From IMG/VR virus record IMGVR_UViG_3300020160_001966, positions 1 to 64,000 of that record: a stretch of 64,000 bases of DNA, one strand, 5' to 3'. The position numbers were made by a program, and so were the translations under genes. The stretch is from a virus. The notes beneath the pieces are model-generated. The model was given only the letters and a program-made list of their open reading frames with translations. It had not been told where the DNA came from and searched no databases. Shown piece by piece: positions 26,091 through 54,432 of this stretch; the stretch's first letter is position 1, and every line of letters starts with the position of its first letter.

Positions 26091-26501
26091 GTGGAAGATT
26101 GCAATTGTTTAAAAAAAAATAAAGATTATTCGAAACCAACATTTACGGTTTCAATAAAAAATTTATCATCAACATTTATAAAAATGTTTGGTGAGAATTT
26201 TAATTTTAGTACTTTAAATGGGTTATATCTTTCCACCAATAATGTGGAAATGTCATCCATATTATTGAATATTTTCACAAATATAAAATCTATAAGTTCA
26301 AAATTTGCTCCAATTGAAATATTTCCAGTGGAAACTTATACATACGATAACGGTAAAGTTTCTTTTTATCTACCAAGCAATTTATTAATTGGTAATTATG
26401 ACGTAGTATATATTAATAACGCTGGATATTCCAAAGCTTCAAACTCTTTAACCTTTACATATTTCACAGTAACAACATCATTTTCATCACATCATAATTA
26501 A
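26091..26501 (+). CDS. Hypothetical protein, possibly Ig/IPT-like beta-sandwich
   Basis: GTG start 5 nt after TAAATA; GNYDVVYINNAGY. Confidence 0.55.
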   Translation: MEDCNCLKKNKDYSKPTFTVSIKNLSSTFIKMFGENFNFSTLNGLYLSTNNVEMSSILLNIFTNIKSISSKFAPIEIFPVETYTYDNGKVSFYLPSNLLIGNYDVVYINNAGYSKASNSLTFTYFTVTTSFSSHHN

Positions 26502-26528: not shown

Positions 26529-27554
26529 ATGCCAGATACAAATTTCACAGAATTTAATTTAAAAACATCATCCAGTCTAGTAACTGGAGATTATCTGGTA
26601 GGTTATGATAAAAATGGTGTCAATGAAATAAGAACCAACATACATGATGTTTTAAATCTTTTTAGTGATTATCAAGCTTTAACATTTAACGAATCTACTA
26701 GAAAATTAACAATTTCTAAAGGAAACAATGTGTCACTATCGGCAATAGATGCCACTTATAATTCTTCCAGTGGTAGATATGAAAGTGTTTATTCTTCTTT
26801 TAATGGATTAAGTGGCAAATATGAAAATTTAACCACTAACGTATATTCAAGTTCATCTTTATGGGAGGGTACGGTTCCAGTTAATAATAAAAATTTTAAT
26901 GGAATAACAACTTATAACTTATCTCTTTCAGATAAAAGTAGTATATTATCAATAAACAATCACACTTTAACATATGTCACGATATCCAACGATTCGGATA
27001 TAAATTTTCCAATAGGTTCTGAAATAAGAATATTGAGAAACGGATTAGGTTTTGTTGGATTATCCGCATTAGACGGTGTCTCTTTAAAAAGTGTTAATGG
27101 TTTAACATTTCTAGAAGAAACATACACTGTTGTAAATTTATTAAAATTAAACAATAATGATTGGATATTGTATGGCGATTTAATTGTAATCCCAACACCA
27201 ACTCCATCACCAACCCCCACTCAAACTCAAACTCCTACTCAAACTCAAACTCCCACACAAACTCAAACTCCCACTCAAACACAAACTCAAACTCCTACTC
27301 AAACTCAAACTCCCACTCTAACTCCCACTCAAACACAAACAGAGACTCCAACACAAACACCAACTAATACAGAGACTCCTACACCAACACAAACACCAAC
27401 TAATACAGAGACTCCTACACCAACTCCAACACAAACACCAACCAATACAGAGACTCCTACACCAACACAAACACCAACTAATACAGAGACTCCTACACCA
27501 ACTCCAACACCAACTAATACAGAGACTCCTACACCAACTCCAACAAAACCCTAA
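26529..27554 (+). CDS. Putative virion protein with a C-terminal Pro/Thr mucin-like tail
   Basis: N-term DYLVGY motif; about 120 C-terminal residues of PT-x-T repeats. Confidence 0.75.
27190..27551 (+). repeat. Coding (PT-x-T)n tract
   Basis: TQTPTQ and [12 protein letters not shown] units. Confidence 0.95.
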
Positions 27555-27663
27555 ACTATAGAGTTAATCGTGTATTTACTTGATAATTTTAAGTACAAAT
27601 CGCAATTTGCCAATAGAAACTTGTATGAGTATTTATTATAATAAATTTTTAATATTAAATAAA

Positions 27664-29979
27664 TCAAGATTCTTTTCTCAATTCTCTAGAATAGTGATCA
27701 AATCTATTATGATTTATTGGAGTTAATAATAAAATAGCGGATTTTATATTATTTTTAACAGTTTCTTGATATATATAAGACATCCAAGTTTGCTCGAAAG
27801 GGTGCGCCCATTTATCCGTTAAAAACATTTTATTATTTCCAGTTTTAGAAACAATCTGAGGCCAATTACAATAATATATTTCACCATCAACATATGGAAT
27901 TTTTTCAAACGATCCTACATTTTTAAATTTTGTTTTAGGAGGATTTGGATCTAATCCCATAACTGGTAATTTATTTTTATCAGGCCAAAGTTGTTCTCTA
28001 ACATTTTGAGGTACATTGTACCAAGACCATTGGGTTATGTTATCACCATAAAATTCAGAAAAAGATAATTTTAAAAAATCATATGAGTTATTTTTTACTA
28101 TCTTCAATGAATTTTCATATAGATTATCAACGTATGATGAGAAACCATTTTTACACCTATAATCTTTATTGGGATTTAAAAACATATCATCTTCAAAAAA
28201 GAAATAAAAATCAAAATTCATCTCGGATGCATGTTCCGCTATGAATTGCCTACCACCACAAATACCCAAATTGTCCTTTTTAATGTGTTTGAAATTGTAT
28301 TTTACACATAACTCTTCATACTCATTGTAAGTAGATTCATCTGTAGAATTATTCAATAAAAATTTACTAGGTTTATCTATAAAATTTTTATCATATCCCA
28401 ACATTGATGTTATTAATGTTTTAAATTGATTTGGACTGTTAAAGGTTAAAACATATAAAGCCGTATTGTTGATATTTAAATCATTTTTAATAAAATTTTC
28501 AGACTTGTTTATTATATTTTTATTATAATTTTTATTTTTTAAATCTTCGAAGAATGGCCACACCAAACCATTACCTTCAAGCATATATTGTGCGATCATA
28601 TCATCATGATTATGCATCAATATTGTGAATATGCTTTCTTCCGTACCCATTAATCCCTCATTTAGAGAACTATTTAAATAAGAATAATATAAACCATTAA
28701 TTTGATTTATGCATGATTTTTTACCACCAAAAAATCCACCTCTGCAAACGTATTTAACATAATCAACATTACAATATCTAGCCAAAGCGTTTCTCTCAAA
28801 ACCATGAACTTCAGATCCTCCTTCATACGGATATGATAAAAATAAAAAATCTTTATTTGTCCCTATAAAATCTGTAATATTATTAAACACTTTATCATGT
28901 GTAAAATAACCATAATGTACAGTGTTGGTTATGCCAGCATCAATCCAGAAAAAATAATCAGAACTAAAAGGATTCCAAATTGTCACATTGTTAACCATGA
29001 ACATCTTACTCATTACTAATGGATTATAACCATCTAGAGTGGCTTGTGGAGAATTTCTTAACCAAGCAGCTTGAGACAACCATGATTCATTAACCCTTAT
29101 ATCGTTTGTATTTTTCGTAAAATTGAACCATTTTTTAAGTTCATCCAAAGACATCAAGTTTACTACTGTATTTTCTCTGCTTCTGTGTTCCCAAATGAAA
29201 TCTTCATCCTTTGGATCTACAAAAATATACATATTGACATCCGTTTTTAATAATTCTGAAAATTTCTTTTGATAATCCGAATAAGATCTTTTAAAAGAAT
29301 CCTCAATATCACCTCTACCCAAATCCCACAAAGCCGTAACAATCGTTATTGGTGATTTTCTCAATTCAACTGGAGCATCTATTTCAAATATTTTTTTGTC
29401 TAAAAAATCCTTTAATACCTCTTCTTTATTAGGCAAATCTATGGTGTAAATTTTTTGTCTAATGTTTATAGAATTTATATTTAAAAATATACCATAATCA
29501 TATCTAACACAAAAAGGTATATAATTTTTATATGTTTTAATAAAATGATCAAAAGTCAATTTATCTTGTAAATGAGTTTCATGTATATTGCCAAAATGTT
29601 CACCTTGGACGGCATCAAAAGGAACAGCAACTATAACACTAGTTTCATTTTTAATTTTATTCAAAACAGATAACGCATCTTCCTCACTAAGATGTTCTAT
29701 AATATCACCAAATATTACCAAATCATATTGATTAAAATCTATATCAGATTTCGTTATATCTTGATTATATACATTATTATATTTCGCCTTTAAATCATAT
29801 TCGTCAATATAAGGTTGATAAACCTCAACGCAATCCATATTTAAGTAACCTCTAGGTTTCAATAAATCGGAATATGTGCCTATACCAGCCCCAACATCTA
29901 ATATTTTACAATCTGTTGGGTAGTTTTTTACGATATATGATATTGTTTCCTTTTTAAAAAAAGATGTAGATGATGGCAT
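27664..29979 (-). CDS. Three-domain fusion: class I SAM methyltransferase, HtrL/YibB-like, GT-A glycosyltransferase
   Basis: LDVGAGIG; TIVTALWD, WIDAG, GGFFGG; NLGICGGRQ, FFFEDDM. Confidence 0.75.
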   Translation of the reverse strand: MPSSTSFFKKETISYIVKNYPTDCKILDVGAGIGTYSDLLKPRGYLNMDCVEVYQPYIDEYDLKAKYNNVYNQDITKSDIDFNQYDLVIFGDIIEHLSEEDALSVLNKIKNETSVIVAVPFDAVQGEHFGNIHETHLQDKLTFDHFIKTYKNYIPFCVRYDYGIFLNINSINIRQKIYTIDLPNKEEVLKDFLDKKIFEIDAPVELRKSPITIVTALWDLGRGDIEDSFKRSYSDYQKKFSELLKTDVNMYIFVDPKDEDFIWEHRSRENTVVNLMSLDELKKWFNFTKNTNDIRVNESWLSQAAWLRNSPQATLDGYNPLVMSKMFMVNNVTIWNPFSSDYFFWIDAGITNTVHYGYFTHDKVFNNITDFIGTNKDFLFLSYPYEGGSEVHGFERNALARYCNVDYVKYVCRGGFFGGKKSCINQINGLYYSYLNSSLNEGLMGTEESIFTILMHNHDDMIAQYMLEGNGLVWPFFEDLKNKNYNKNIINKSENFIKNDLNINNTALYVLTFNSPNQFKTLITSMLGYDKNFIDKPSKFLLNNSTDESTYNEYEELCVKYNFKHIKKDNLGICGGRQFIAEHASEMNFDFYFFFEDDMFLNPNKDYRCKNGFSSYVDNLYENSLKIVKNNSYDFLKLSFSEFYGDNITQWSWYNVPQNVREQLWPDKNKLPVMGLDPNPPKTKFKNVGSFEKIPYVDGEIYYCNWPQIVSKTGNNKMFLTDKWAHPFEQTWMSYIYQETVKNNIKSAILLLTPINHNRFDHYSRELRKES

Positions 29980-29984
29980 ATTAA

Positions 29985-30581
29985 TTATTCTGTATCTCTC
30001 ACTTTATATATCACATGGTTTACAAATTCATAGTCCATCTGTTGACCAATTTCCTCAAAAAAACAAACATCCCCTAAAACATCTTCTCTGAATTTTGGTA
30101 AATTATGAGTATTGGGTATAGCGCACATACATTTTCCAATATTACCTCTAGAAAAATTTTGAACATTCCAAGCATAAGTGTTTCCCCATTTATGTTTAAA
30201 GATATACAATTTATTTTTAACCTTCAAAGTTTTCTTAATATAATCAAAAGCTCCATCAACATATCTATCATCATCATCAGCAAACATTATGAAATCTCCT
30301 TCCAACCCATTCAAATACATATTCAATAAAGGATGACCATACGCCCCCTTTCTATCACTTTCATTTATAATATGTTGTGTTTTAAATTTAAAATTATATT
30401 TTTTTAAAACATTAGCTACATAATCATGGTTTATATCGGATATTATAGTGAATATATCATTTTCCGATAATTGGTTAATAAAAGATTCAATCAATCTAGG
30501 TAGAGTCTCTCTACCAATTGTTGTACATACAACATTTATACTAAAATTCATAACACTTTTCAGTAAAATATTTGGACTCAT
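29985..30581 (-). CDS. GT2-like glycosyltransferase
   Basis: VVCTTIGRETL, GDFIMFADDDD. Confidence 0.8.
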   Translation of the reverse strand: MSPNILLKSVMNFSINVVCTTIGRETLPRLIESFINQLSENDIFTIISDINHDYVANVLKKYNFKFKTQHIINESDRKGAYGHPLLNMYLNGLEGDFIMFADDDDRYVDGAFDYIKKTLKVKNKLYIFKHKWGNTYAWNVQNFSRGNIGKCMCAIPNTHNLPKFREDVLGDVCFFEEIGQQMDYEFVNHVIYKVRDTE

Positions 30582-31413
30582 CGTACATATCCATAATTTT
30601 CAAAAAAGCTTTTTGTAAATCTATCCAATCATCGAATTCAAAAAATTTAACATTTTTATCGTTTAAAACAACACCTAATACTTCTTGTTCGCTTATCAAT
30701 TCGTCATATTTTTCAATATGTTGTATGAAAGTGTTTTTAAATTCTTTCAAAACCTCCAAATTTTTTTCTTTACTCCCTCCAAATAAACAACCTGGTACTA
30801 ATTTCAAATCAACTCCAGTTAAATTTCTAATTCTATCTTTTAGTTCATAATTTATAACTATACTATTACCTTTCGTAGCTATAAATTCATGTTCTTCAAC
30901 TTTTTCAAAAATTTTGTCTAAAAATATTTCCTTACCGTATATGACACCTCTCATATAATCCCTCCAACCATTATGGCAACTCGTACCAAACAATCCAGCA
31001 TCCAACCAAACAACCAAATCATTACGATCATTCTCACTATGAGAAGAATTTTCCAATAATAATTCGATCTTATTCAAGATAACTTCAATATAATTTTTTA
31101 CAGAATATATTCTGTCATATATGTCACCAGCTTGAAATCTTCTTTCTCTTATAGGATTTACTTTATTCAAATAAAAATCATTATTCAATTCTTTTTGAAT
31201 TATTTTAACATTAGCTCTTTCACCAGTTCTATAAACATCATGTAAACGATGTTTATTTATAGTTTCTTCATTGCTGTATATGATATAATCATACTTATCG
31301 AAAATTAAAGAGTTTAATGTTTCAGCTAAAAGTGCAAAATTTTTATAAACCTCCCCACTCCTAGAAGGTTCGTATCTTAATTCATAGACTGAGCTAATTA
31401 TTGTTTTTTTCAT
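30541..31413 (-). CDS. HtrL/YibB-like protein
   Basis: VVWLDAG, PGCLFGG, SEQEVL parallel the HtrL domain of 27664..29979. Confidence 0.65.
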   Translation of the reverse strand: MKKTIISSVYELRYEPSRSGEVYKNFALLAETLNSLIFDKYDYIIYSNEETINKHRLHDVYRTGERANVKIIQKELNNDFYLNKVNPIRERRFQAGDIYDRIYSVKNYIEVILNKIELLLENSSHSENDRNDLVVWLDAGLFGTSCHNGWRDYMRGVIYGKEIFLDKIFEKVEEHEFIATKGNSIVINYELKDRIRNLTGVDLKLVPGCLFGGSKEKNLEVLKEFKNTFIQHIEKYDELISEQEVLGVVLNDKNVKFFEFDDWIDLQKAFLKIMDMYDESKYFTEKCYEF

Positions 31414-31416
31414 ATT

Positions 31417-32136
31417 TTAATACCACTTATCATGTACAGCTATTAAAGCATTGACAGATTTTGAAGAACTGTTTCTATTATATATATCATTCATTAAACC
31501 AGCAAAACACATTTCATCTATATTTCCAGCTGGAGTATTATGCAAACCATCTTCTTTTTTAATTTTTATCAATTCATTCCAAGTTTTTATAAACTTCACG
31601 GCATTGCCGTTATTTATTGATATAAATTGAATACAATCTTCAACCATTTCGTTTAATAATTCTTTATCAAATTCTTTATTATAAAATTTTTCGTAATGTA
31701 AAAATCTTCTCCCAAGCATACTATTAGTATCAATCTGATCTTTAAAATTATATGTAACTTGACCAGTTATGGAATTTTCTATAAAAGTATTTTTTATAGT
31801 ATCGTGATTATATATCGAAGAATTTGCAACAGCATCAGTGTCTGTTAAAACAACCTTTTCATATCCATTTTCAAATGCAAATAATAAAGAAAATCTTTTT
31901 ACAGAAAAATCGAAAGAATAATAATTATCTTTCTCATAATTCAAATATGACTCATTATATGCTTTTACATTTTTTACATGAATGTTTTCTTTTTTTATAA
32001 TAGATTCTGGAGAATCAGTTACTATAAAAATTTCAGGTTTGATATCTAAGAAATCAAAACTTTCAATCAAACGATTAGTTTGTTTATAATACCTCTCACC
32101 ATAACAAAATGTAGAAATAGCATAATCTAAAATCAT
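31417..32136 (-). CDS. Putative GT-A fold glycosyltransferase
   Basis: VVLTDTD DxD motif, FSVKRF, IDEMCF; cluster context. Confidence 0.5.
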   Translation of the reverse strand: MILDYAISTFCYGERYYKQTNRLIESFDFLDIKPEIFIVTDSPESIIKKENIHVKNVKAYNESYLNYEKDNYYSFDFSVKRFSLLFAFENGYEKVVLTDTDAVANSSIYNHDTIKNTFIENSITGQVTYNFKDQIDTNSMLGRRFLHYEKFYNKEFDKELLNEMVEDCIQFISINNGNAVKFIKTWNELIKIKKEDGLHNTPAGNIDEMCFAGLMNDIYNRNSSSKSVNALIAVHDKWY

Positions 32137-32723
32137 ATTCTAACGTAACAACACCAAGCAGCTTTTTTAAAATCCAACTTTCCATATTCTATTAAATTAT
32201 TTCTTGTTATAGAATCACATATATCCGAGTATTGTATCTCAAACCAATTCCAAATCTTTTTTTCAATATCATTTTTAAAAACAACATCACTTTGAGCATA
32301 GTCATGTGCCATTATAAAATCGTTTCTCTTAATATAATCGGAATAAAAATTAAATTCATTTATTTTAAACCCACCATCACACAACAATAATACTTTACCC
32401 CCATTGTTTATGAGATGTATCACATAATTTTTGAAAGTTTCAGTGGTTTCATCCATCACATGGTAATGAACACCCCTCTCTTTTAATTGAGCCTCAACAT
32501 AATCTTTATGTGAAAAATCAAAAGTGTGAATTTTTTTTGACAGATCGTTTTCGACACATACATCATCTATAATATAAGTTAATCCACCTAAAGAAGTTCC
32601 TAATTCTATTATAGTATCAAAATTTTCTTCCTTTAAAAAAGTTTCAAAAAAAGATTTAATATCCTTTACTTGTTGCGTGGTATGTAAATTTTTATATAAA
32701 AAAAATGAGTCTATAGTTTCCAT
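32133..32723 (-). CDS. Class I SAM O-methyltransferase (CmcI/Methyltransf_24-like)
   Basis: IIELGTSLGG, LLCDGG, IMAHDY. Confidence 0.75.
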   Translation of the reverse strand: METIDSFFLYKNLHTTQQVKDIKSFFETFLKEENFDTIIELGTSLGGLTYIIDDVCVENDLSKKIHTFDFSHKDYVEAQLKERGVHYHVMDETTETFKNYVIHLINNGGKVLLLCDGGFKINEFNFYSDYIKRNDFIMAHDYAQSDVVFKNDIEKKIWNWFEIQYSDICDSITRNNLIEYGKLDFKKAAWCCYVRI

Positions 32724-32726
32724 AAT

Positions 32727-33983
32727 TTAAAAAAGATTTCCTGTAATTTTTTCACACCAACCTTTAGATTTGGAATATGGCCAAACCACCCAATACTTGG
32801 GTTTACTTGATGTTTGAAATTCTCTCCAAACTTTACAATATTTATCTGGATCGTTTAACATTGTATTGATTTCGGATATATCGGCATCTTTTCTGTATAA
32901 AGTTTCATCATTTTCATCGTGGAAAGCAACGCACCAGAATTCATAATCCTTTTCTGGAACTTGATGATAACCCACATCAATACAATGTTTGAACACATTA
33001 GCAAATTGTTTTTTCCAATTTTCTTCTCCACCCAATTCTTCAATAGATGGATTTGGTGGATCTTTCTTATCTAAAGTATATTGCTGAACCGATCTTTCAG
33101 AAAAAAGCAAGCCAGAATATTCTTCATATTCTCTGAGGGTTCTGATTTTACCAAAACCATACTTACCATCGTGACCTTCTTGCTTTTCACCATCCATACC
33201 GAAAAGTTTTCTATTGGTGTGATGAGATATTCTATTCCTTTCACCCCACTGTTTATCATCATCCCACTGTTTCGTTCTACCCTTTCTCGTATATTCGTGC
33301 CAAATTACAGCTTGATGAGGATGAAATAAATCATAACCATAAGTATAAGCTCTAGCCGCTATGGATATTTCTTCTCCATGAAAATAATATTCTGGATTAT
33401 GTTGTACTTCTACACTAAATTCTCCAAGAGTAAAACACATATGAGCAGAATAAAATCTAGCTCTAGTTGGAGATTTTAATTCGGTATGGTTGGGGATATC
33501 TTCTGGAAGGAAGAAGACAGCACCCTCTGGAATAAATCTATCAAACACCATTCTCCAAGGTTTCTGAACTCTTTCTTGTGGATCATTTTCTGGATTAAAT
33601 GATGGAGCGTATGCTGTCAATAAAGGCTTTTTATAACCCATATCTTGCAACTGTTTAACCATTCCTATTAGCGTTTCATCCCAATCTTTATTAAAACGCA
33701 TATGTGAATCTATTTGTAAAGTATATTTTTCATCAGAATATAATTGTTGAACAGCATTTCTAGCCCAACAAACCCCTTTACTATCTTGATAAGGAACGTC
33801 TATTATTTTAAACCTTGTATCATTTTTAAACTCATCCAAATTTTCAGTATCGTCGTGTTGCCAACAGATAGCAAACACCAAATTTTCTGGATTTTTCGCA
33901 TTATTCAAACAATCTTTTATTGTTGGTATTAGTTGAGGATCTCTATAGGATGCTATCTGAATGAATATTTTATTGTTTCGCAT
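32727..33983 (-). CDS. GT60-like (Gnt1/Gnt2) polypeptide N-acetylglucosaminyltransferase
   Basis: IFIQIASYRDP, GVCWAR, LQIDSHMRF..DWD, FHGEE, VIWHEY; ATG at 33983 preferred over TTG at 33998. Confidence 0.85.
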   Translation of the reverse strand: MRNNKIFIQIASYRDPQLIPTIKDCLNNAKNPENLVFAICWQHDDTENLDEFKNDTRFKIIDVPYQDSKGVCWARNAVQQLYSDEKYTLQIDSHMRFNKDWDETLIGMVKQLQDMGYKKPLLTAYAPSFNPENDPQERVQKPWRMVFDRFIPEGAVFFLPEDIPNHTELKSPTRARFYSAHMCFTLGEFSVEVQHNPEYYFHGEEISIAARAYTYGYDLFHPHQAVIWHEYTRKGRTKQWDDDKQWGERNRISHHTNRKLFGMDGEKQEGHDGKYGFGKIRTLREYEEYSGLLFSERSVQQYTLDKKDPPNPSIEELGGEENWKKQFANVFKHCIDVGYHQVPEKDYEFWCVAFHDENDETLYRKDADISEINTMLNDPDKYCKVWREFQTSSKPKYWVVWPYSKSKGWCEKITGNLF

Positions 33984-34095
33984 ATTAAATGATATCAATT
34001 TAGTTTATCACAAAAAAGATATAATTCAATATAATATATTTTCTCGAATTATATAAAAATATTCTTTAAAGTTACTCTTAGATCCAAGATCGACT

Positions 34096-34812
34096 TTATG
34101 TTTTAGGATCTGTTGGAGTTGGTGTAGGAGTTTCTGTAGGTGTAGGAGTTGGTGTTGGAGTCTCGGTTTCTGTCGGTGTAGGTGTAGGAGTCCCTGTTGG
34201 AGTCTGTGTTGGAGTTTCTGTATTGGTTGGTGTCTGTGTTGGAGTAGGAGTCCCTGTTGGAGTAGGAGTCCCTGTTGGAGTCTGTGTTGGAGTTTCTGTA
34301 TTGGTTGGTGTCTGTGTATTGGTTGGTGTCTGTGTTGGAGTAGGAGTTTCTGTTGGAGTCTGTGTATTGGTTGGTGTCTGTGTTGGAGTAGGAGTTTCTG
34401 TTGGTGTCTGTGTATTGGTTGGTGTCTGTGTTGGTGTTGTAGTCGGTGTTGTAGTTGAAGTCTGTGTTTGTGTGGGCGTTTGAGTCACAGTCTGTGTATT
34501 GGTTGGAGTTTGGGTTTGTGTGGGGGTTAAAGTTTGTGTTGGAGTGGGTGTTGGACTTAAAGGAAGTAATGGAGTTGTTAAAATTGCTCCAATATCTGAA
34601 ATTGTTATTTTAAATCTTGAACCGTTATCTGCCAACATGATAACATTGTTTAATTGCACCAAATCGTTTGCCGTAACACTACCATAAATAGTAGTATTTC
34701 CAGAGACAGAATTATTGTAACAAGAATCTATTAAATCTGAAAATTCAGTTCCTATAGGTTTTTTTAAATCACTAAAACGTTCTTTTAAATATTCTGCACT
34801 CTGTATCGCCAT
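34096..34812 (-). CDS. Short anchor domain plus long Pro/Thr mucin-like tail
   Basis: N-term LKERF...P...FSDLIDS..N; about 150 residues of PT-x-T. Confidence 0.75.
34099..34560 (-). repeat. Coding (PT-x-T)n tract
   Basis: [16 protein letters not shown] units. Confidence 0.95.
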
Positions 34813-46171: not shown

Positions 46172-46786
46172 ATGGGAAAAGAGAAAACATTTTTAGATTA
46201 TGATTGGACTCCTGTTATAGCTTTTGAAAGTGGTGGCGAAAAGTATTACAATAAATTCTTAAAAAAAATGACTTGGCCAAGGGGGGCTTCAGGAATAACT
46301 ATGGGAATAGGTGCAGATCTTGGATATATGAGTGAAAAGGAATTTGATACTTATTTTTCAAAATATTTCACTGATGATGAAAATAAAAAATTAAAATCAA
46401 CAATAGGATTAAAAGGTGAATTAGCTAAAAACGCATTACATAAAGTTCAAAATATAGAGCTTTCTTGGGAAAATGCTTCAGAGGCATTTGTTGATTGGAC
46501 GTTACCCAAATTTTGGAATTTGACCAATGCTCTATGGTCAAAAATGGATGAATTGTGTGAAAATGCTCAAATCGGATTAGTAAGTATTGTGTTTAACAGG
46601 GGAGCATCAACTAAAGGATTTTCTAGAACAGAAATGCTAAACATAAAACCATTGGTATTAAAAAAAGATTACAAAGGAATAGCTAAAGAGATACGTTCCA
46701 TGAAAAGGCTTTGGGAGGGTAAAAATATGGATGGTCTTATAAAAAGAAGAGAAGAGGAAGCGAGAATGGTAGAAAGTTGCATTTAA
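46172..46786 (+). CDS. Pesticin/T4-lysozyme-like muramidase (endolysin)
   Basis: IAFESGG, WP.GASGITMGIGADLG, SIVFNRG, GLIKRREEEA. Confidence 0.8.
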   Translation: MGKEKTFLDYDWTPVIAFESGGEKYYNKFLKKMTWPRGASGITMGIGADLGYMSEKEFDTYFSKYFTDDENKKLKSTIGLKGELAKNALHKVQNIELSWENASEAFVDWTLPKFWNLTNALWSKMDELCENAQIGLVSIVFNRGASTKGFSRTEMLNIKPLVLKKDYKGIAKEIRSMKRLWEGKNMDGLIKRREEEARMVESCI

Positions 46787-47322
46787 TCGACAACTATGCA
46801 ATACGTGGGGCATCCATCCTCTGTTAAAAAATCTATTTTTAAATTTTTATCTCTGCAAAATTCATCGACAGCATTAACTACGCTTTGAAATATATTTTTA
46901 GAATAATCGTGACCACATATATGTTTACCTTTTTTAATTTTTCTATAAGAAACTTCTAAGTCTTTTTTGACACCCTCATAACTATGATCTCCATCAATAT
47001 AAATCAAATCAAAATATCCGTCTGGAAAATTATTTAATACATTAAAACTACATCCCTTATGTAGATGAATAATGCTGTTATTATCGTATTCGTTTTTAAG
47101 TTTTAAATATTCATCGTTCAAATTTGTCCATACGACATTATTTCCATCTTTATCACCAGAACACATTTCACCATCGAAAATATCTATTAAATGTAATTCT
47201 TTGGGTTCCATTTTCTCATATATTATTTTTGAAAAATCTCCTTTAAAAACTCCAATTTCAGCTACAATTATATTTTTAGGCAATATATCTAAAAGATCGT
47301 TTCGCGTTTTTAATATTTTCAT
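46783..47322 (-). CDS. Class I SAM methyltransferase (Methyltransf_24-like)
   Basis: AEIGVFKG, DLIYIDGDHSYE, CGHDY. Confidence 0.85.
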   Translation of the reverse strand: MKILKTRNDLLDILPKNIIVAEIGVFKGDFSKIIYEKMEPKELHLIDIFDGEMCSGDKDGNNVVWTNLNDEYLKLKNEYDNNSIIHLHKGCSFNVLNNFPDGYFDLIYIDGDHSYEGVKKDLEVSYRKIKKGKHICGHDYSKNIFQSVVNAVDEFCRDKNLKIDFLTEDGCPTYCIVVD

Positions 47323-47963
47323 TTTTTTATAATTTTAATTCCAGTATAATCTATCTTTTCAATAGAAATATTAACATTTTCAAAATATTCATCAAATGCT
47401 TTTTTCGAACCTTGCCAATGACCATAATCATCGACAATTAAAACTCCATCATTTTTTAATTTAGGATATAACACATCTAACTCTTTTTTTGTGGATTTAT
47501 ACCAATCAGTATCTAATCGTAATAAACTTATATCTTTTGGAATATTTTTATCACAATTTAATGTTTCAACTATATCACCAACAATATAATGCACATTATC
47601 TACAGGAAATGTTGATTTGGATAAATTGTTTTTCACATCATTCAAATCAGCATATGCTTTCACAAGTGGCAAATTCATGATATCAATCGCTTTTCTACCA
47701 TCACAATCAATATCAGCATCTTCTGGTTCAGTCATTCCTTCAAATGTGTCATACAGCCAAACGTGTCTATTAAACATTTTGTGATGATTCAAATATTCCA
47801 TTATTCCTAAAATATTACCACCTCTCCATACCCCACATTCAACAAAATCGCCATCTATATTTTGCAATCTAACATATTCTAAAGAATCGAATAAAGATCT
47901 TATTCTTTCCAAAGAAGTCATTGTATATGGGTGTACTATTTCTATAAAATCGTTTATATTCAT
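47319..47963 (-). CDS. TylF/MycF-family sugar O-methyltransferase
   Basis: GDFVECGVWRGG, YDTFEG, LRLDTDWY.ST, IVDDYGHW. Confidence 0.92.
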   Translation of the reverse strand: MNINDFIEIVHPYTMTSLERIRSLFDSLEYVRLQNIDGDFVECGVWRGGNILGIMEYLNHHKMFNRHVWLYDTFEGMTEPEDADIDCDGRKAIDIMNLPLVKAYADLNDVKNNLSKSTFPVDNVHYIVGDIVETLNCDKNIPKDISLLRLDTDWYKSTKKELDVLYPKLKNDGVLIVDDYGHWQGSKKAFDEYFENVNISIEKIDYTGIKIIKK

Positions 47964-48691
47964 AAATTATTATCGTTTTTAAAACTTATCATTTTTTCAA
48001 TTTTTTTATGATAATTTCCAGAATCTGTCGTGAAATGTATCGCGGTGCCGTTAAAATTATTCATATGATAACCTTTAGCTGTCACTTCATCGCTAAAAGA
48101 ATCGTTGTATAAATCTTTTCTATATAAAAACACATTCAAATAAGGTTGTTCCAAACAATTATTGCCCTTATCCATATTATTTAACATATATTCTTCAATA
48201 TCTCTAAACACATCCACCATATTGTTATTGAAACCAAAAATACCAGCATTCATGCCATATATATTTTTTTTAAAAATATCATCCCTTTCATAATCATTTA
48301 TAAGATTACCGCCCCACAATTCATGTGACATCAAATCCGTTTCTTTACACAAATATATTTTATTTTCTCTTATTTTATCAAATAAAATGTCAGGATTTTT
48401 CAAAAAAAGAATATCCGAATCACAAAATAATATTTTGTTGAAATCTTTTATTTTTTCAAACTGATATATTTTGAATTTATTAGCACTAGATTGAAATAGA
48501 TTTTCATTTTTTGAAAAAATAAAATAAGGTTTTTTTTGAAATTCAATCTTTTCCAATATTTCATTTTCAAATTCACTTATAAACAAAAAATCACCATCAT
48601 AACCATTCTTATACAAACTTTCTATGCATAATTTCGTTAAATTTAAATACTCTATATTGTATCCTAAAGTAAAATATATTAATCTAGACAT
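47960..48691 (-). CDS. GT8-like glycosyltransferase
   Basis: KILFCDSDILF, NAGIF, EQPYLN, IHF. Confidence 0.7.
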   Translation of the reverse strand: MSRLIYFTLGYNIEYLNLTKLCIESLYKNGYDGDFLFISEFENEILEKIEFQKKPYFIFSKNENLFQSSANKFKIYQFEKIKDFNKILFCDSDILFLKNPDILFDKIRENKIYLCKETDLMSHELWGGNLINDYERDDIFKKNIYGMNAGIFGFNNNMVDVFRDIEEYMLNNMDKGNNCLEQPYLNVFLYRKDLYNDSFSDEVTAKGYHMNNFNGTAIHFTTDSGNYHKKIEKMISFKNDNNL

Positions 48692-48700
48692 CGACCTAAA

Positions 48701-48757
48701 AATTTAATAAGATAATAACAATAATCAAGTTGATATTTGATCGAAAAAAGATAAAAT
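48701..48757. promoter_or_regulatory. Divergent pair of sigma70-like promoters
   Basis: Plus TTGATA-N16-TAAAAT (48730-48757); minus TTGATT-N16-TAAATT (48728-48701). Confidence 0.55.
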
Positions 48758-48763
48758 ATTATT

Positions 48764-49561
48764 GTGAAAATATGCATAGGTTTTAATCTGCACCATCCTT
48801 TAAATGAAAGAGTTTTAATTTCACAAAAAAGTCTATTGAGACTTAAAGAAAAATTTAATATAGAGTTGGTAAATTTAGATTTTAAGAATAGCGATAAAGT
48901 CAATGATAGTGATGATTTTAAAAATTTATATGTCTTGAAAGAGCATAGTAGTTTTTATACAAATGGTAGCAGTAGAGATTTACCAATGATCCATGATATG
49001 TTTAATTGTTTAAGTGATTACTCAGATGAAAATGGTATAGACATGTTTATATTTGTAAATTCGGACATAATAATATCCGATAGATTCATAAAACATATAT
49101 TAAGCACGAATTTCGACACTTATTGTGCTGCCAGATTAGCTATAGGAAATATTGACTCTTTAGACGAGCAGCCTAAAGAAATTTCACATTATCAAGTTGC
49201 TGGATTTGATGCATATGCTGTAAAAACAAAGTGGTGGAAAGAAAATGGACATAAATTTCCAAAATACATTTATGCTATCAGTGGTTGGGATGTTGATTAT
49301 GCCACTAAGATGAAACGATACGGTAATTGCGATTTTTGTAACAAATGGCCAGCGATGACTTTTCATATAATGCATGAAGAAATATCATCGAAAGATTCTC
49401 CAGAATTAATTTATAATAAAAATCTTTTATGGAATATAAACAAAGAAGATTGTGATATTTGGCATAATTATCTTTACAACGTTTTATTAAAAAGAAAAGG
49501 TGGTAATTATTGGCATCCTTTCGACAATGAAGTTGAATTAGAAAGAATTTATTTTAAATGA
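48764..49561 (+). CDS. Putative GT-A glycosyltransferase-like protein
   Basis: FIFVNSDII, GFDAY, WD motifs; cluster context. Confidence 0.55.
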   Translation: MKICIGFNLHHPLNERVLISQKSLLRLKEKFNIELVNLDFKNSDKVNDSDDFKNLYVLKEHSSFYTNGSSRDLPMIHDMFNCLSDYSDENGIDMFIFVNSDIIISDRFIKHILSTNFDTYCAARLAIGNIDSLDEQPKEISHYQVAGFDAYAVKTKWWKENGHKFPKYIYAISGWDVDYATKMKRYGNCDFCNKWPAMTFHIMHEEISSKDSPELIYNKNLLWNINKEDCDIWHNYLYNVLLKRKGGNYWHPFDNEVELERIYFK

Positions 49562-50469
49562 AATATTACGTCGATAAAAATTATTTGAAATTGGAAGATT
49601 TGGAATTGGTTACAGAATTATTATTTTCTTATCAACTTTTATCAAATGATGCTAAAAATTACATAAACAATAATCGTTTTTGGGAGTCTGGTATATTTTA
49701 TAATTTAAATACGGTAGAATATTCAAACGAAAATGAATGTGATTATTTCGCATTACCTTTCAAATTCAAAAGTTCAAAAGAAGACAGATTTTTAAAAGTT
49801 TTACACAAAGCTAAAGAATTTAATAAAAAATTAATATGTTTGAATAACGATGATTTTGGTGGTGATTACGAAATACCTAGCGATATAATTCTCTTTAGAA
49901 CATCTTTCGATTATAAATCTAAAATGGAAAATGAATACGCTTTTCCAGTTTTTATACCAGATATAATAAAAAACTCTAAAGGATATTCGAATAATTTATC
50001 TATAGGTTTTTGTGGAGATAGTAATAGGCCAGTTAGAAAAGAAGCTTTATTTGAACTCAAAAAAGGAAATATTCCATTGAATCATGATGAAGTGTTTTCT
50101 TTTTTTCAAAACCCAATAATTGATAAAAAAATTGGCAGGGAAAGATTTTTTAAAAATTTAGAGAATAACATTTTTGTATTATGCCCAAGAGGTTGTGGAA
50201 ATTTTTCATATAGATTTTACGAGACAATGTGTTATGGTAGAATACCGATTTTCATAAACACTGATTGTGTTTTACCTTTTGAAAACTTAATAGATTATAA
50301 AAAAGAAATAGTTTTTGTCGAAGAGAGTGAGTTGACAAACATAAACGATATAATTAAAGAATATTGTGACAAAAAAGATTTAATATTACAACAAAAAAAG
50401 TGTAGAGAAATATGGGAAAATTACCTATCACCTAATGGTTTTTTAAAAAATATAGAAAATATATTATGA
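49558..50469 (+). CDS. Exostosin-family (GT47) glycosyltransferase
   Basis: FVLCPRGCGNFSYRFYETMCYGRIPIF. Confidence 0.85.
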   Translation: MKYYVDKNYLKLEDLELVTELLFSYQLLSNDAKNYINNNRFWESGIFYNLNTVEYSNENECDYFALPFKFKSSKEDRFLKVLHKAKEFNKKLICLNNDDFGGDYEIPSDIILFRTSFDYKSKMENEYAFPVFIPDIIKNSKGYSNNLSIGFCGDSNRPVRKEALFELKKGNIPLNHDEVFSFFQNPIIDKKIGRERFFKNLENNIFVLCPRGCGNFSYRFYETMCYGRIPIFINTDCVLPFENLIDYKKEIVFVEESELTNINDIIKEYCDKKDLILQQKKCREIWENYLSPNGFLKNIENIL

Positions 50470-51146
50470 AAATTTATACAACCTTTTCATCTTCTCATAA
50501 AATTCTTTTTGATGAGTACTTTTTACCGTCATATAAGAAAGCGAACGCTAATAAACAATTTTCCCTATATGTTTCAGAAATGGAGCAGATAAGCAAAAAC
50601 GGTTCTTACAGCACCTATGGATTTAGAGAATCGACTTCAGATAAATTGAAGGTTATTATAAAGGCAATATCGGATAATATGGGGGAATGGATAATATTTT
50701 CAGATCCAGATATTCAATTTTTTGAAGGTTTTGCGGATGATGTTTTAAAATATTCTGATAAAAATGTAGATATATATTGTCAATGTGATACTCCAAAATG
50801 TCCAGAAAATGTCATAATGTGTACTGGGTTTATGATTATAAATTGCAATGAGCAAATTAAAAAAACATTCGAATCATCTTTAACATACATTAACAGTTTC
50901 GAGCATGATCAATATGCTTTTAATTATTTCGCAAGAGATAATAAAATTAAGTTTAAGACTTTACCAGAAGACAAATATTATACCATAGCATATAACACAG
51001 GAAATGCTGTTTGGAATGGTGAGACGTATAATAACATTCCTAAAAATATTCTAATGCATCATGCTAACTGGACTGCTGGTATAGAAAATAAAATAAAACT
51101 TTTAAAATATATTAAAGATGAAATTACAGGAAAAGTTACTATTTGA
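50466..51146 (+). CDS. Nucleotide-diphospho-sugar transferase (GT77-like)
   Basis: IIFSDPDIQF, CTGFM, HDQYAFN, HHANW. Confidence 0.8.
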   Translation: MKIYTTFSSSHKILFDEYFLPSYKKANANKQFSLYVSEMEQISKNGSYSTYGFRESTSDKLKVIIKAISDNMGEWIIFSDPDIQFFEGFADDVLKYSDKNVDIYCQCDTPKCPENVIMCTGFMIINCNEQIKKTFESSLTYINSFEHDQYAFNYFARDNKIKFKTLPEDKYYTIAYNTGNAVWNGETYNNIPKNILMHHANWTAGIENKIKLLKYIKDEITGKVTI

Positions 51147-51993
51147 TACCACATATTTAAGGATAAAATATCCTTTAACGCCATATCCTTCTTATCATCA
51201 AGGTTTGTATTTAGAAGAATATTTTTGTGATTATTTTATAAAAAATTGTTTACACGAAGTATATGATAGATATTACCTTCCTATATTTTGGACCAACATA
51301 TATTTAAAAAATTGGTTACACAATTACAGAAACCCAGTGCTGCAATGTTTCTTAGACACTTTGCCAAAAAATCAAAAATATTTCACCGTTTGTCAACACG
51401 ATGACGCTCCTTCTGAAAATATAGATGGTTTTGACATCAAAGTTTTTTCCGCTGGTGGTAATTATTCTAAAGGCATACCAATACCTTTAATATGCGCCCC
51501 GATGAATGTCGATAATATTATAAAGGATAAAAATATTTTTTGCAGTTTTGTCGGATCTTTAACACATGATGTTAGGAAAAAATTTATAGAAACATATAAA
51601 AATGATGAGGAATTTTACATATCTTCCAGAGAATGGAATTATGGAATAAACGCGCAACAATTAGATTTATTCTCAAATATAACATCCAAGTCTCATTTTA
51701 CTATATGTGCGAGAGGTTATGGTAAACAAAGTTTTAGATTTTACGAGACTTTACAATTAAGAAGCATACCAGTATACATTTATGATAATGATCCATATCT
51801 GCCTTTTTCGGACGTTATTGATTATAATTCTTTTTCTATAATACTAAATGTTAAAGATATTGGCAAATTAAAAGATATTTTAAAGTCTATTGATTTTAAT
51901 AAAAGGATTGAAATGATTGAAAAGGGATGGGAAATATATAAAAATTTCTTCACTTTTGAAAAAGTAACAGAAAGAATTTTAAAAAATGTCTAA
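51118..51993 (+). CDS. Exostosin-family (GT47) glycosyltransferase
   Basis: FCSFVGS.THDVR, FTICARGYG..SFRFYE.LQL.SIPVYI. Confidence 0.85.
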   Translation: MKLQEKLLFDTTYLRIKYPLTPYPSYHQGLYLEEYFCDYFIKNCLHEVYDRYYLPIFWTNIYLKNWLHNYRNPVLQCFLDTLPKNQKYFTVCQHDDAPSENIDGFDIKVFSAGGNYSKGIPIPLICAPMNVDNIIKDKNIFCSFVGSLTHDVRKKFIETYKNDEEFYISSREWNYGINAQQLDLFSNITSKSHFTICARGYGKQSFRFYETLQLRSIPVYIYDNDPYLPFSDVIDYNSFSIILNVKDIGKLKDILKSIDFNKRIEMIEKGWEIYKNFFTFEKVTERILKNV

Positions 51994-52759
51994 TACGAAT
52001 GGTGTAATATATTTTGAAGGTGTTGGTAAAAATAAAGGAGGATTATGTGACAGGTTAAAAGGTATGTATTCTTGTTGGATTTTATCCGAAAAATTGAATA
52101 AAGATTTTATATATAATATACCTCATCCAGTAGCTTTAAAAGTTAAAAATTATAAACAAATAAATAGCGAGGCTTTCACGGAATTGAATGTGATAGATTG
52201 GGAAAATTATTTACAATATTCTTCAAAAATAAAAAATTTGGATTTTCCAGAATTAAATTATAAAATACACACAAATATTGATTTCTCTAACGATTTCAAT
52301 CATTATAATAGTTTTCAAATTTTTATAAAACAATTTTTCAATTTAAATCAATTTGAAAAAGAACATAATGTTCAAAAATACGATATAGGTATACATGTAA
52401 GATGTGGTGGAGAAATGGTTGAATGGAACGATTATGATTTTGGTAAAAAAATAATAGAAACGGAATTTAAAAAAAGATTGGAAGAAATAGCAAATTTTAA
52501 AAAAGAAATATTTTTATGCTCAGATTCCAAAAAAGTTTTAGATATGGTTGATAGTTATAATATAAAAAACATATACTTGAGTCCATATGAACCCAATCAT
52601 ATTGATAGAGGTTTCAATGTTACAGAAAATGACTATATTTCAACTTTTTATGATCTATTGACTTTGGCTAATTGTCGATCAATATATGCGACTCTCGGAG
52701 AGTTTGCTAAAACATCTTCTAGAATTTACAACAATGAATTACAATATTTTTACAACTGA
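51986..52759 (+). CDS. Fucosyltransferase-like GT-B protein
   Basis: GGLCDRL, IGIHVRCG, IFLCSDS. Confidence 0.7.
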   Translation: MSNTNGVIYFEGVGKNKGGLCDRLKGMYSCWILSEKLNKDFIYNIPHPVALKVKNYKQINSEAFTELNVIDWENYLQYSSKIKNLDFPELNYKIHTNIDFSNDFNHYNSFQIFIKQFFNLNQFEKEHNVQKYDIGIHVRCGGEMVEWNDYDFGKKIIETEFKKRLEEIANFKKEIFLCSDSKKVLDMVDSYNIKNIYLSPYEPNHIDRGFNVTENDYISTFYDLLTLANCRSIYATLGEFAKTSSRIYNNELQYFYN

Positions 52760-53654
52760 AAAAGAACAATATCTAGTGGGTAATATCGAGTATGGTGGTT
52801 TTGGGGCCATGTATGCTAGAAGAAAACTCATAATGCAAATAGCTCAAGCCTTTAACAGAATACCCATCTTTAGATATTCTAAAGATTATGTATACGATGA
52901 TCCATTTTTAGAATTTAATCCAAATATAAATGATTTAAAAAATAAAGGCATAAAAGAAATTAAAAAATTTGATTTCACTGATAATGATGAGGTAGCGGTT
53001 TTTTTCGATTTCGGTTCGTATTGGAATAGTGAAAACATGCATAAGTATCAATGCTGGAGTCCTGATAAAGAAGATTATGTTCAATATTCTGGATATATGT
53101 ACAATCTTTTAAAGTTAAAGGAAGAATATTCATTAAAGGTAGAAGAAAAGATAGATTTTTTAAAACATAAGTATGATATAAAATCTTTCGATGATTATAT
53201 AGCAATACATTTAAGAAGAGGCGATAAAATAACAGAAACTAATTACATTAACGATGTTACATTGTTTGATTATGTGGAAAATTTAAACATAGGGAATAAA
53301 ATTTTTGTTACTAGCGATGAGTTGGATTATATATATGAAATTGAGCAAAAATATCCAAATTTTGAATTTATTTACGATTCTGAAGAAAAAAGATATGGGA
53401 ATAAAACTATTTCTAATGTTGATATGGTGGCTATGAATCCTTCATTAAAAGAACAAGAGACTTTAACATTTGTAAAAAATGTGGAGATTTTAAAAAGATG
53501 TAAAGTTGTTATTGGACCTCATAGCGCACAAATGACTAAAATAGCAGGTTCTATGAATTCTTATTTAAAAAATAAAAAGACTTTGCTTCTTATAAATACA
53601 GAAAGCGATAAATGGGAATTAGAGACTATGGGTAGCTCTGAGCAAACTGCTTAA
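52734..53654 (+). CDS. Alpha-1,6-fucosyltransferase-like (GT23/NodZ/FUT8-like)
   Basis: GGFG, IAIHLRRGDK, IFVTSDE; start revised to 52734. Confidence 0.75.
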   Translation: MNYNIFTTEKEQYLVGNIEYGGFGAMYARRKLIMQIAQAFNRIPIFRYSKDYVYDDPFLEFNPNINDLKNKGIKEIKKFDFTDNDEVAVFFDFGSYWNSENMHKYQCWSPDKEDYVQYSGYMYNLLKLKEEYSLKVEEKIDFLKHKYDIKSFDDYIAIHLRRGDKITETNYINDVTLFDYVENLNIGNKIFVTSDELDYIYEIEQKYPNFEFIYDSEEKRYGNKTISNVDMVAMNPSLKEQETLTFVKNVEILKRCKVVIGPHSAQMTKIAGSMNSYLKNKKTLLLINTESDKWELETMGSSEQTA

Positions 53655-54432
53655 AAATATTTTTCATAATAGTCTTGACTTGTTGTTCTGATGTATCTGG
53701 AACACAATTATTCCAAGCTGGTAAGACTCCATGTTTTTGTTTGAAATATTCAGCCCCCCTTTGAATATTATCAGACCAGTCTTTTCTAGGTCTAATTGTA
53801 CTGCTATTTTCCGAACATTCTATTTCATCCAAATATTCACAACTATTGGCCAGATCAGGCCAATTCCAATAAGGTGTGGTATAGCCTTCCTTTGAAATTC
53901 TATAAGAATGCTCAACATGCTCAAACGCATTTACAAAATTTTCATCTATAGTTCCACATTTATATAGAACTTCTCTACTATAATAACAGAACGCCCCAAC
54001 ACTGTGAGTATTTATAGACAATTTTATATCCCCATAATCCACTATATATCTAGGACAAGGTTTCCCCTTAGATACCCCATTTTTATTAGCTGGACCATGA
54101 TATGCAAAACAAAAATGTTGTATACCAGTTATTTTTCTAGCACGAATATATTCGTTAAAAACATTCGGGTCTTTTACAATTATATCGTCTTCAATAATAA
54201 AAATATGGTCCGCTCCAGATTTAATAGCATTTTGAAATAAAATATTTTTACTTTTACCCACTCCCAAATTTGTTTTATTTTTTATATAAAAATCATTTCT
54301 TTCAACCTCAACATCGATCTTACCATCATTAACAACTCCAATAAAATCAACATTATTAGATTTTTTAACAGATTGATAACATTTTTTAAAAAAATCTGTT
54401 CTATCGCAAGTAACTATTCCAACAAATACCAT
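53626..54432 (-). CDS. GT2-like glycosyltransferase
   Basis: NLGVGKSKN, IFIIEDDI, DENF, EHVEHSYR. Confidence 0.8.
   Translation of the reverse strand: MVFVGIVTCDRTDFFKKCYQSVKKSNNVDFIGVVNDGKIDVEVERNDFYIKNKTNLGVGKSKNILFQNAIKSGADHIFIIEDDIIVKDPNVFNEYIRARKITGIQHFCFAYHGPANKNGVSKGKPCPRYIVDYGDIKLSINTHSVGAFCYYSREVLYKCGTIDENFVNAFEHVEHSYRISKEGYTTPYWNWPDLANSCEYLDEIECSENSSTIRPRKDWSDNIQRGAEYFKQKHGVLPAWNNCVPDTSEQQVKTIMKNIFKQFAQSYP

Follow-up and report, generated by a model that had tools for sequence, protein, structure and literature searches.

Can a phage glycosylate long proline- and threonine-rich tracts of its own proteins with enzymes that it encodes itself? The question is raised by the first 64 kb, hereafter called the window, of the 116-kb IMG/VR viral record IMGVR_UViG_3300020160_001966, the completeness of which is about 55 % (CheckV estimate). 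In the window, six minus-strand open reading frames (ORFs), abutting or overlapping each other, fill positions 27664-33998 between two genes, PT1 and PT2, the products of which end in long tracts of Pro-Thr-x-Thr (PT-x-T) repeats (Table 1). The gene next to PT2 encodes a glycosyltransferase of family GT60 (PF11397). We regard it as rather likely that these genes carry out a stepwise, cytoplasmic O-glycosylation, probably with methylation of the sugars, of PT stalks on fibre proteins of the phage. All ORFs named in the original prediction, which was made from the sequence alone, were recovered where it had placed them, and the arrangement it described, six contiguous glycosylation and methylation genes flanked by two genes with PT-x-T tails, was seen both in the ORFs and in their translations.

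The GT60 gene and the PT-x-T tracts

The product of the GT60 gene matched PF11397 with an expect value (E) of 1e-63 (216.4 bits, cut-off 21), in two stretches corresponding to profile positions 2-44 and 96-348, and the phage glycosyltransferase family phrog_24687 with an E value of 1.6e-162. The motifs from which the family had been predicted (IASYRDP, CWAR, QIDSHMRF and GEE) are all found in the translation, and the profile search suggested together with that prediction bore it out. Translation probably begins at the ATG at 33983, the start chosen in public gene calls, and not at the TTG at 33998; depending on this choice, PT2 ends 97-112 bp before the first gene of the cluster, on the same strand.

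Searches of the Protein Data Bank (PDB) by sequence, with the single protein and then with a profile, gave no match, and only the fold search was successful. The AlphaFold2 (AF2) model, which like the conservation analysis was built on 46 homologues with 36-83 % identity, had a predicted local distance difference test score (pLDDT) of 95.4. Both Foldseek and VIA-align placed polypeptide GalNAc-transferases (ppGalNAc-T), the initiating enzymes of family GT27, on top. The top 29 VIA rows were all ppGalNAc-T (Z 19.2-22.4, root mean square deviation 3.2-3.9, 258-284 residues), and other GT-A folds reached a Z of 18.1 at most. Replacement of the DxD motif by DxH is a mark of GT27 and GT60 (PMC7185993). 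The phage enzyme has the DxH motif (D92-S-H94) and the downstream Mn2+-binding His (H229), and these residues, together with E204 and E205, are invariant in all 46 homologues. Residues 327-418 form an additional, confidently modelled β-rich domain which is barely covered by the structural matches to ppGalNAc-T. The protein has no hydrophobic segment.

GT60 comprises pp-α-GlcNAc-transferases of protists, which are related to GT27 and initiate mucin-type glycans; a soluble, cytoplasmic member modifies Skp1 (PMC8724618). The GT60 enzyme of Trypanosoma cruzi glycosylates Thr in mucins with 46-54 % Thr and about 1 % Ser (PMC3769586), a composition very close to that of the PT tracts in the window (approximately 49 % Thr, 25 % Pro and 1 % Ser). 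At 90 % identity, public sequences of the family fall into more than 7,000 clusters. Public sequences also include giant proteins of 1,300-2,461 aa (P0242, P0243, P0246, P0253 and others) with two to four separate GT60-like stretches.

PT1 consists of a 220-aa globular N-terminal part and a 119-aa C-terminal tract (residues 222-341) with 26 PT-x-T units (48.7 % Thr, 25.2 % Pro, 14 % Gln, 0.8 % Ser). In PT2, a 78-aa N-terminal module is followed by a 160-aa tract (residues 79-238) with 36 units (49.4 % Thr, 25.0 % Pro, 10 % Gln, 1.2 % Ser), which extends to the C-terminus. Both proteins thus have the tandem Thr/Ser/Pro-rich repeats of mucin-like acceptors. Tandem Repeats Finder gave periods of 12, 18, 36 and 78 nt at 27192-27545 and 34109-34552. 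Pro and Thr codons are mixed within the tracts, indicating that it is the protein, and not the DNA, that is constrained, and the opposite-strand ORFs at 26960-27220 and 34223-34483 are shadows of the repeats. The whole 116-kb record contains only three PT-tract ORFs, the third being PT0, whose neighbour at 3208-5580 matches tail-fibre PHROGs (E 8e-40).

Residues 106-219 of PT1 matched phrog_21978 (4e-8), phrog_8780, a minor tail protein (1.4e-6), and phrog_16053, a tail fiber (4.6e-4). The N-terminal module of PT2 had no match in Pfam, PHROG or NCBIfam, and a protein-atlas neighbour, T4_gp9_10_N (score 0.87), is taken as a lead only. By tblastn, the module has 34-76 % identity to the N-termini of GT60-adjacent PT proteins at six related viral loci (L003, L005, L010, L011, L020 and L034). 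The homologue in L010 has 669 aa from the first Met (673-aa open frame) and a much longer PT-rich region, and one PT protein sharing the module ends in a weak ConA-like lectin match. Together with the reuse of the module at the N-termini of PT proteins, this end suggests, as far as can be judged from sequence, that PT2-type proteins may be built as fibres with an anchor, a stalk and a head. The 136-aa protein encoded directly upstream of PT1 has 45-56 % identity to ORFs in L004, L005, L011 and L020; of these homologues, those in L004 (residues 150-259), L005 and L011 have scored PT tracts.

The source is an uncultured large freshwater phage with a GC content of about 30 %. Near-identical DNA was found in three freshwater metagenomes, all from one study and two of them possibly the record's own source; no RNA dataset was among the listed holders of this DNA. 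A megablast search of the region against cultured phages gave no match. PHROG matches to tail fibres, sheath, large terminase, major head protein and baseplate hub at 1-24 kb identify a contractile-tailed phage, and ribonucleotide reductase is encoded at 37.5 kb, the glycosylation region being placed between the structural module and the nucleotide-metabolism module.

Table 1 Positions in the window of the GT60 gene, the PT-tract genes and the associated sugar-modifying genes
Feature	Position	Strand	Basis
GT60-family (PF11397) polypeptide glycosyltransferase, 418 aa, predicted soluble; candidate initiator	32727-33983	-	Pfam, PHROG, model, motifs
GT60, catalytic GT-A domain	~33006-33983	-	
GT60, DxH motif	33702-33710	-	
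GT60, β-rich C-terminal domain	32730-33005	-	
PT1, 341 aa, candidate acceptor	26529-27554	+	ORF and composition; converges on cluster end
PT1, PT-x-T tract	27192-27551	+	
PT2, 238 aa, candidate acceptor directly upstream of GT60	34096-34812	-	ORF and composition
PT2, N-terminal module	34579-34812	-	
PT2, PT-x-T tract	34099-34578	-	
PT0, 694 aa, multi-domain, three PT tracts, further candidate acceptor	1114-3198	-	ORF and composition
136-aa protein directly upstream of PT1	26091-26501	+	Homologous to N-termini of cluster-converging PT proteins in close relatives
771-aa triple fusion, conserved GT60 partner	27664-29979	-	Pfam, AF2 model, PDB fold matches
771-aa protein, S-adenosylmethionine (SAM) methyltransferase	29380-29979	-	
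771-aa protein, HtrL_YibB-type GT-A domain	28513-29367	-	
771-aa protein, second GT-A domain with EDD motif	27667-28467	-	
198-aa GT2-like glycosyltransferase	29985-30581	-	PF00535 E 4.4e-4 (below cut-off); NCBIfam PglI-type glucosyltransferase E 1.6e-6 (far below cut-off)
290-aa stand-alone paralogue of HtrL-like GT-A domain	30541-31413	-	hhalign, XacN1 ORF332 match
239-aa protein with DTD motif, possible GT6/GT8-like retaining glycosyltransferase	31417-32136	-	Atlas lead only
196-aa small methyltransferase-like protein, weakly CmcI- or rhamnosyl O-methyltransferase-like	32133-32723	-	PF04989 E 0.011, PF13578 E 0.032, both below cut-offs
Second cluster, ten sugar-modifying genes	46783-54432		Pfam

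Linkage of GT60 with PT-tract genes in other genomes

In IMG/VR, 353 relatives of the GT60 protein were confirmed, and the loci of the best 80 were compared. A PT-rich ORF on the same strand, ending at most 400 nt upstream of GT60, was found at 67 of 79 loci, compared with 26 of 683 control genes (3.8 %), counts which do not represent independent events since the adjacency is largely inherited within one clade. The HtrL/GT-A protein was encoded 1.6-6 kb downstream of GT60 at 79 of the 80. The usual operon contains one or more PT genes, GT60, a 250-aa gene, an HtrL-like paralogue and the HtrL/GT-A gene. The PT genes beside GT60 often occur two to four in tandem, with products of up to 2,894 aa in which PT tracts alternate with small Cys-containing domains. 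They are not one family: the flanking domains form several clusters, and the PT genes adjoining the cluster have different N-terminal domains and lie in either orientation. Hidden Markov models of the flanking domains from the relatives gave no match to the PT proteins of the window. Relative to the PT2 homologue, the closest relatives have the cluster turned round, and a PT gene is still found at each end. The synteny of GT60 with PT-x-T genes that had been proposed as a check was thus observed in viral relatives, and also in some distant phages and bacteria. Bracketing of the cluster by PT genes holds for the window and, among the relatives, only for the closest subclade, the usual layout being a PT gene upstream of GT60.

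Co-occurrence at the genome level was assessed in viral records picked solely by a DNA pattern coding for TPTxTPTxTPT, with records picked by the same pattern reversed as controls. PF11397 was found in 16 of 48 PT-pattern records and in none of the 29 controls (Fisher p 2.6e-4), in line with the expected association, but genome size and clade are not the same in the two sets, so that the result demonstrates co-occurrence and not coupling.

GT60 homologues with 46-49 % identity are encoded by Xanthomonas phages XacN1 and Xoo-sp13 and Stenotrophomonas phages RAS14 and CM1. In the cultured phage XacN1 the operon ORF334-ORF330 resembles the cluster in the window in combining GT60, an HtrL-like paralogue and an HtrL/GT-A protein (ORF330, 42 % identity to the 771-aa protein), and Xoo-sp13 and RAS14 have genes matching this operon in size, order and position. 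In these three phages the operon converges on the gene of a 3,100-3,300-aa protein which adjoins baseplate genes. The PT/PS stretch of this giant protein is short and near its C-terminal end, unlike the PT tract encoded directly upstream of GT60 in the window. XacN1 virions contain at least two Schiff-stained glycoproteins, which were suggested to be made by phage glycosyltransferases, with neither family nor acceptor assigned (PMC5852040).

A gene annotated as a carbamoyltransferase (about 765 aa) lies between the GT60 and HtrL-type genes of XacN1 and Xoo-sp13, where the window has methyltransferases, and an unannotated gene of the same size is found at this position in RAS14 (L083-L086 for the three phages). 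This sequence pattern hints that the sugars of XacN1 and Xoo-sp13 may be carbamoylated and not methylated.

The pairing recurs at further viral loci (L167, L168 and L174), and at a marine locus (L107) where a PT-linker protein of at least 1,147 aa, matching a virion structural protein with an E value of 1e-71, is encoded just upstream of a GT60 with 47 % identity. In bacterial assemblies, a PT gene was found upstream of GT60 in 8 of 74 cases, compared with 3.2 % of control genes, with examples in Gemmatimonadaceae, Tepidamorphus and Vicinamibacterales. The PT proteins of the latter two have Tat-like signals followed by PT/PS tails. In four Gemmatimonadaceae loci (L098, L099, L100 and L103) a protein of about 200 aa with a PqqD domain, a hydrophobic stretch and a PT-rich tail is encoded directly before GT60 and the HtrL/GT-A gene. 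The PqqD domain, of the type that recognizes ribosomally synthesized and post-translationally modified peptides, matched PF05402 in L100 with an E value of 1.5e-7, and the next ORF upstream in this locus has a P-loop motif that may be of the HPr-kinase-like type. The set may be a peptide-modification cassette.

The closest GT60 matches outside the viral database (L087-L093, L096 and L108) have 54-70 % identity. Their contigs have been binned as Saprospiraceae, Lewinellaceae, Cytophagaceae, Chitinophagia or Bacteroidia, with a single one under the label Melainabacteria. These are probably phage sequences binned together with a Bacteroidota host, and the phage in the window may have its host among the Saprospiraceae or other Bacteroidota of these bins.

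Partner enzymes and the proposed pathway

The original prediction had assigned elongation and methylation to the genes between PT1 and PT2, and such genes are indeed present: the 771-aa protein comprises a methyltransferase and two GT-A domains, and ten further glycosylation genes form the second cluster. Residues 211-457 of the 771-aa protein matched PF09612 (HtrL_YibB) with an E value of 2.2e-16 (60.7 bits, cut-off 24.1). The cut-off of the NCBIfam YibB equivalog was missed (64.7 compared with 264.9), and the protein is thus not an orthologue of Escherichia coli YibB. Several methyltransferase families matched weakly (E 1.5e-5 to 8e-4), all below their cut-offs; fusion of a methyltransferase to the HtrL/GT-A protein is widespread. 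The AF2 model of residues 205-771 (pLDDT 90.3) has two GT-A domains, the best PDB matches being the tandem GT-A enzymes LH3, mimivirus R699, LARGE1, K4CP (chondroitin polymerase) and heparosan synthase 2. D143, in the motif WIDAG, and E392-D393-D394 are invariant in the homologues.

The 290-aa protein was aligned by hhalign with the HtrL-like domain of this partner at an E value of 2.4e-4 (probability 43 %), the motifs WLDAG/WIDAG and LFGGSKE/FFGGKK coinciding. It has 22 % identity to XacN1 ORF332 (E 7e-8), and the relatives carry a 303-aa HtrL-like gene at this position. The 239-aa protein had no match in Pfam or PHROG; its atlas neighbours, clusters with Glyco_transf_8 and Glyco_transf_6 (score 0.95), are a lead only. 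Homologues of the 196-aa protein were found at 11 of the 80 related loci. No hydrophobic segment was found in any of the eight proteins (PT1, PT2 and the six enzymes), and the cluster encodes no flippase, lipid-carrier enzyme, polyprenyl-phosphate priming transferase or polymerase.

The second cluster encodes Methyltransf_24 (PF13578, E 5e-15), TylF O-methyltransferase (5e-40), GT8 (3e-6), two GT47 exostosin-like (3e-19 and 7e-13), GT77-like Nucleotid_trans (PF03407, 6e-11), weakly FUT8-like and weakly GT2-like proteins, and two proteins without assignment. It probably extends or varies the same glycans as the first cluster, a link that we infer. The two clusters have at least 13 glycosyltransferase domains between them, and together they form an unusually large glycan toolkit for a phage.

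In the proposed pathway PT2, PT1, PT0 and probably other PT-tract proteins would be made in the host cytoplasm without signal peptides. The soluble GT60 enzyme would bind UDP-HexNAc through its Mn2+-binding DxH...H site and transfer the first sugar to hydroxyls, most likely of Thr, in the disordered (PT-x-T)n tracts; by analogy with the family, the donor would be UDP-GlcNAc and the linkage α. The chain would then be extended directly on the protein by soluble GT-A enzymes, namely the tandem HtrL-type/GT-A protein, the HtrL-like paralogue and the GT2-like and GT6/8-like proteins, to which the ten genes at 46.8-54.4 kb possibly contribute, and the fused and neighbouring methyltransferases would cap the sugars by O-methylation. 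The order of a GT60 enzyme followed by a bifunctional glycosyltransferase parallels the cytoplasmic Skp1 pathway and matches this stepwise logic. The product would be a stiff, protease-resistant 'bottle-brush' stalk on fibre-like proteins, built into the virion or carried on it. Glycosylated PT linkers are known in bacterial cellulases, and by this analogy protection from proteases and stiffening would be the most conservative guess for the role of the glycans. Shielding and adhesion, named in the original prediction, are likewise putative roles.

Alternative explanations and known glycosylation systems

A number of observations weigh against such a pathway. We know of no chemistry for any phage or bacterial PF11397 protein, and acceptor switching is easy among GT-A enzymes. 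Several of the cluster enzymes were assigned with scores below curated cut-offs. The virion location of PT1 and PT2 is based on weak similarities, and a PT1 homologue beside GT60 was not found by tblastn at the 80 related loci. The GT60 tree shows approximately 13-15 changes of the PT-adjacency trait, concentrated in one viral clade, and 66 of the 74 bacterial homologues have no PT gene upstream. The control set of the co-occurrence analysis differs from the PT set as described above. In the sample, PF11397 is missing from six of nine complete viral genomes with PT tracts, which means that PT tracts do not need GT60, and in a complete 321-kb relative and in the XacN1-type genomes several sites distant from GT60 also carry PT tracts. 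In the XacN1 study the stained glycoprotein bands were not assigned to proteins (PMC5852040).

Some of these points would fit PT tracts that are unmodified, flexible linkers of fibres and that lie together with the GT60 cluster in a variable, accessory part of the genome bordering the structural module, the enzymes glycosylating another protein of the capsid, sheath or host. The tracts occur at many genome sites and in complete phage genomes without PF11397, their adjacency is mostly inherited within clades, and in XacN1-type phages the nearest PT stretch lies several kb away in a 3,300-aa protein. Mycobacteriophage glycosylation reportedly targets the C-termini of capsid and tail-tube proteins. 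That virion proteins are glycosylated in these phages is also reported in work cited in PMC12582341. We nevertheless consider this explanation unlikely, since the adjacency persists where the PT gene has been rearranged or replaced and is seen again in remote lineages of phages and bacteria, the Thr-rich, Ser-poor, Pro-spaced tracts match the known GT60 acceptors, and the nearest folds are those of enzymes acting on such disordered tracts. It is more improbable still that both clusters build or remodel a non-protein glycan, such as lipopolysaccharide (LPS) or capsule of the host, exopolysaccharide or free oligosaccharide, for superinfection exclusion or host takeover. HtrL_YibB owes its name to an LPS-core region, polysaccharides and small molecules are common substrates of the GT2, GT8, GT47 and TylF families, and a review of jumbo phages takes similar glycosyltransferase clusters as modifying capsular or outer polysaccharides (PMC7824862). 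However, none of the enzymes has a membrane segment, the priming transferase, flippase and polymerase named above are missing from the cluster, those enzymes of GT60 and of its sister family, GT27, that have been characterised start glycans on polypeptides, and the fold match to ppGalNAc-T is clear of the polysaccharide GT-A enzymes.

In a variant of the pathway, to which we give only a small chance, the first sugar would be placed on hydroxyproline after hydroxylation of Pro by a 2-oxoglutarate (2OG)-Fe(II) oxygenase, as in the Skp1 pathway. One GT60 branch modifies hydroxyproline on Skp1 and Pro makes up 25 % of the tracts. Proteins resembling 2OG-Fe(II) oxygenases are encoded by two tandem genes in the record and by three genes in the complete relative G001, but the match to the superfamily is marginal (27.4-27.5 bits, cut-off 27), the genes of the record lie about 73 kb from the cluster, adjoining an unrelated ATPase/GNAT gene, and in the relatives that were examined the conserved GT60 operon contains no oxygenase. 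The two paralogues (181 and 176 aa) are encoded at approximately 106.4-107.5 kb of the record (L176:1210-2287), after a fusion of a P-loop ATPase and a GNAT acetyltransferase.

Glycosylation of modified DNA bases, of the T-even glucosyl-hydroxymethylcytosine or TET-associated glycosyltransferase (TAGT) type, was rejected as the principal explanation and appears very remote. The C-terminal domain of the 771-aa protein weakly matches TAGT (E 0.059) and a PHROG of β-glucosyl-HMC α-glucosyltransferase (E 3.4e-4), but at the level of the fold only, TAGT scoring 13.7 bits against a cut-off of 27.5. No thymidylate-synthase-like hydroxymethylase (PF00303) was matched in the 116-kb record at its estimated completeness. 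To our knowledge, GT60 has no member that acts on nucleic acids.

Glycosylation of PT stalks, as proposed here, would most closely resemble the protist GT60 systems, namely the Golgi pp-αGlcNAcT and the cytoplasmic Skp1 GlcNAcT of Dictyostelium, and TcOGNT-2. The phage enzyme shares with these the PF11397 domain, the GT-A fold and DxH for DxD, and its candidate acceptors are likewise Thr-rich, Ser-poor and Pro-containing. Like the Skp1 GlcNAcT, it is a soluble protein with a bifunctional two-domain glycosyltransferase as the next enzyme. It differs in being encoded by a phage, with a candidate site of action in the bacterial cytoplasm, in its extra C-terminal domain of about 90 residues and in its partners, which are HtrL-type GT-A enzymes and methyltransferases, not GT2, GT74 and GT77. 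The animal ppGalNAc-T provide the closest solved structures (Z 19-22 over about 270 residues), have the same DxH...H metal site and act on disordered Thr/Ser/Pro tracts, as proposed for the phage enzyme. They share only 10-14 % sequence identity with the phage protein and, whereas the latter is soluble, are anchored in the Golgi membrane as type II proteins; their additional domain is a lectin of the ricin type.

That viruses can glycosylate proteins of their own virions is already known. Fibrils of giant viruses are glycosylated by clustered viral enzymes including methyltransferases (PMC9614988), and mimivirus fibrils, the chlorovirus capsid and mycobacteriophage capsids and tails have in common with the phage clustered glycosyltransferases and methyltransferases of the virus's own (PMC9614988, PMC12582341, PMC5852040). 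Those systems place their glycans on virion proteins or on fibrils at the surface, and methylated sugars are among them. Their enzyme families and acceptor designs are different, and a GT60 initiator or long PT-x-T tracts are reported in none, the mycobacteriophage system being set apart on the basis of works that cite it. No paper linking GT60 or PF11397 to phages or PT tracts was found; one preprint merely lists GT60 among viral carbohydrate-active enzymes.

If the proposed pathway is correct, very common environmental phages coat their own appendages with mucin-like glycoproteins by means of a relative of the eukaryotic mucin initiator. Phage surface glycans would then matter for adsorption, host range, protease resistance and particle stability, a soluble initiator expressed in bacteria would be available for making mucin-type glycoproteins, and the finding would have consequences for ideas on how the GT60 and GT27 families arose. 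A wider reading, which we offer tentatively and with more doubt than confidence, is that an abundant clade of freshwater jumbo phages, the Xanthomonas and Stenotrophomonas jumbo phages and scattered bacteria run a complete cytoplasmic mucin-type pathway, with GT60 as initiator, tandem HtrL-type GT-A enzymes as extenders and methyltransferases acting on the sugars, that turns PT-x-T stalks of fibre proteins into a dense, methylated virion glycocalyx. This would be the prokaryotic and viral counterpart of eukaryotic mucin initiation, and possibly a relative of its source.

A scan for sigma-70 promoters and terminators was uninformative in this AT-rich DNA. A T4-type late-promoter motif, TATAAATA, absent before PT1, PT2 and GT60, is found a few bases 5' of the start codon in several genes for structural proteins and wall hydrolases, with sites on the minus strand of the window at 11139, 18633, 19067, 20661, 61284, 63057 and 63504. 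An imperfect tandem array with periods of 39, 78 and 156 nt, unrelated to the PT tracts, is present at 51-472, inside the first, truncated ORF (2-1108, minus strand).

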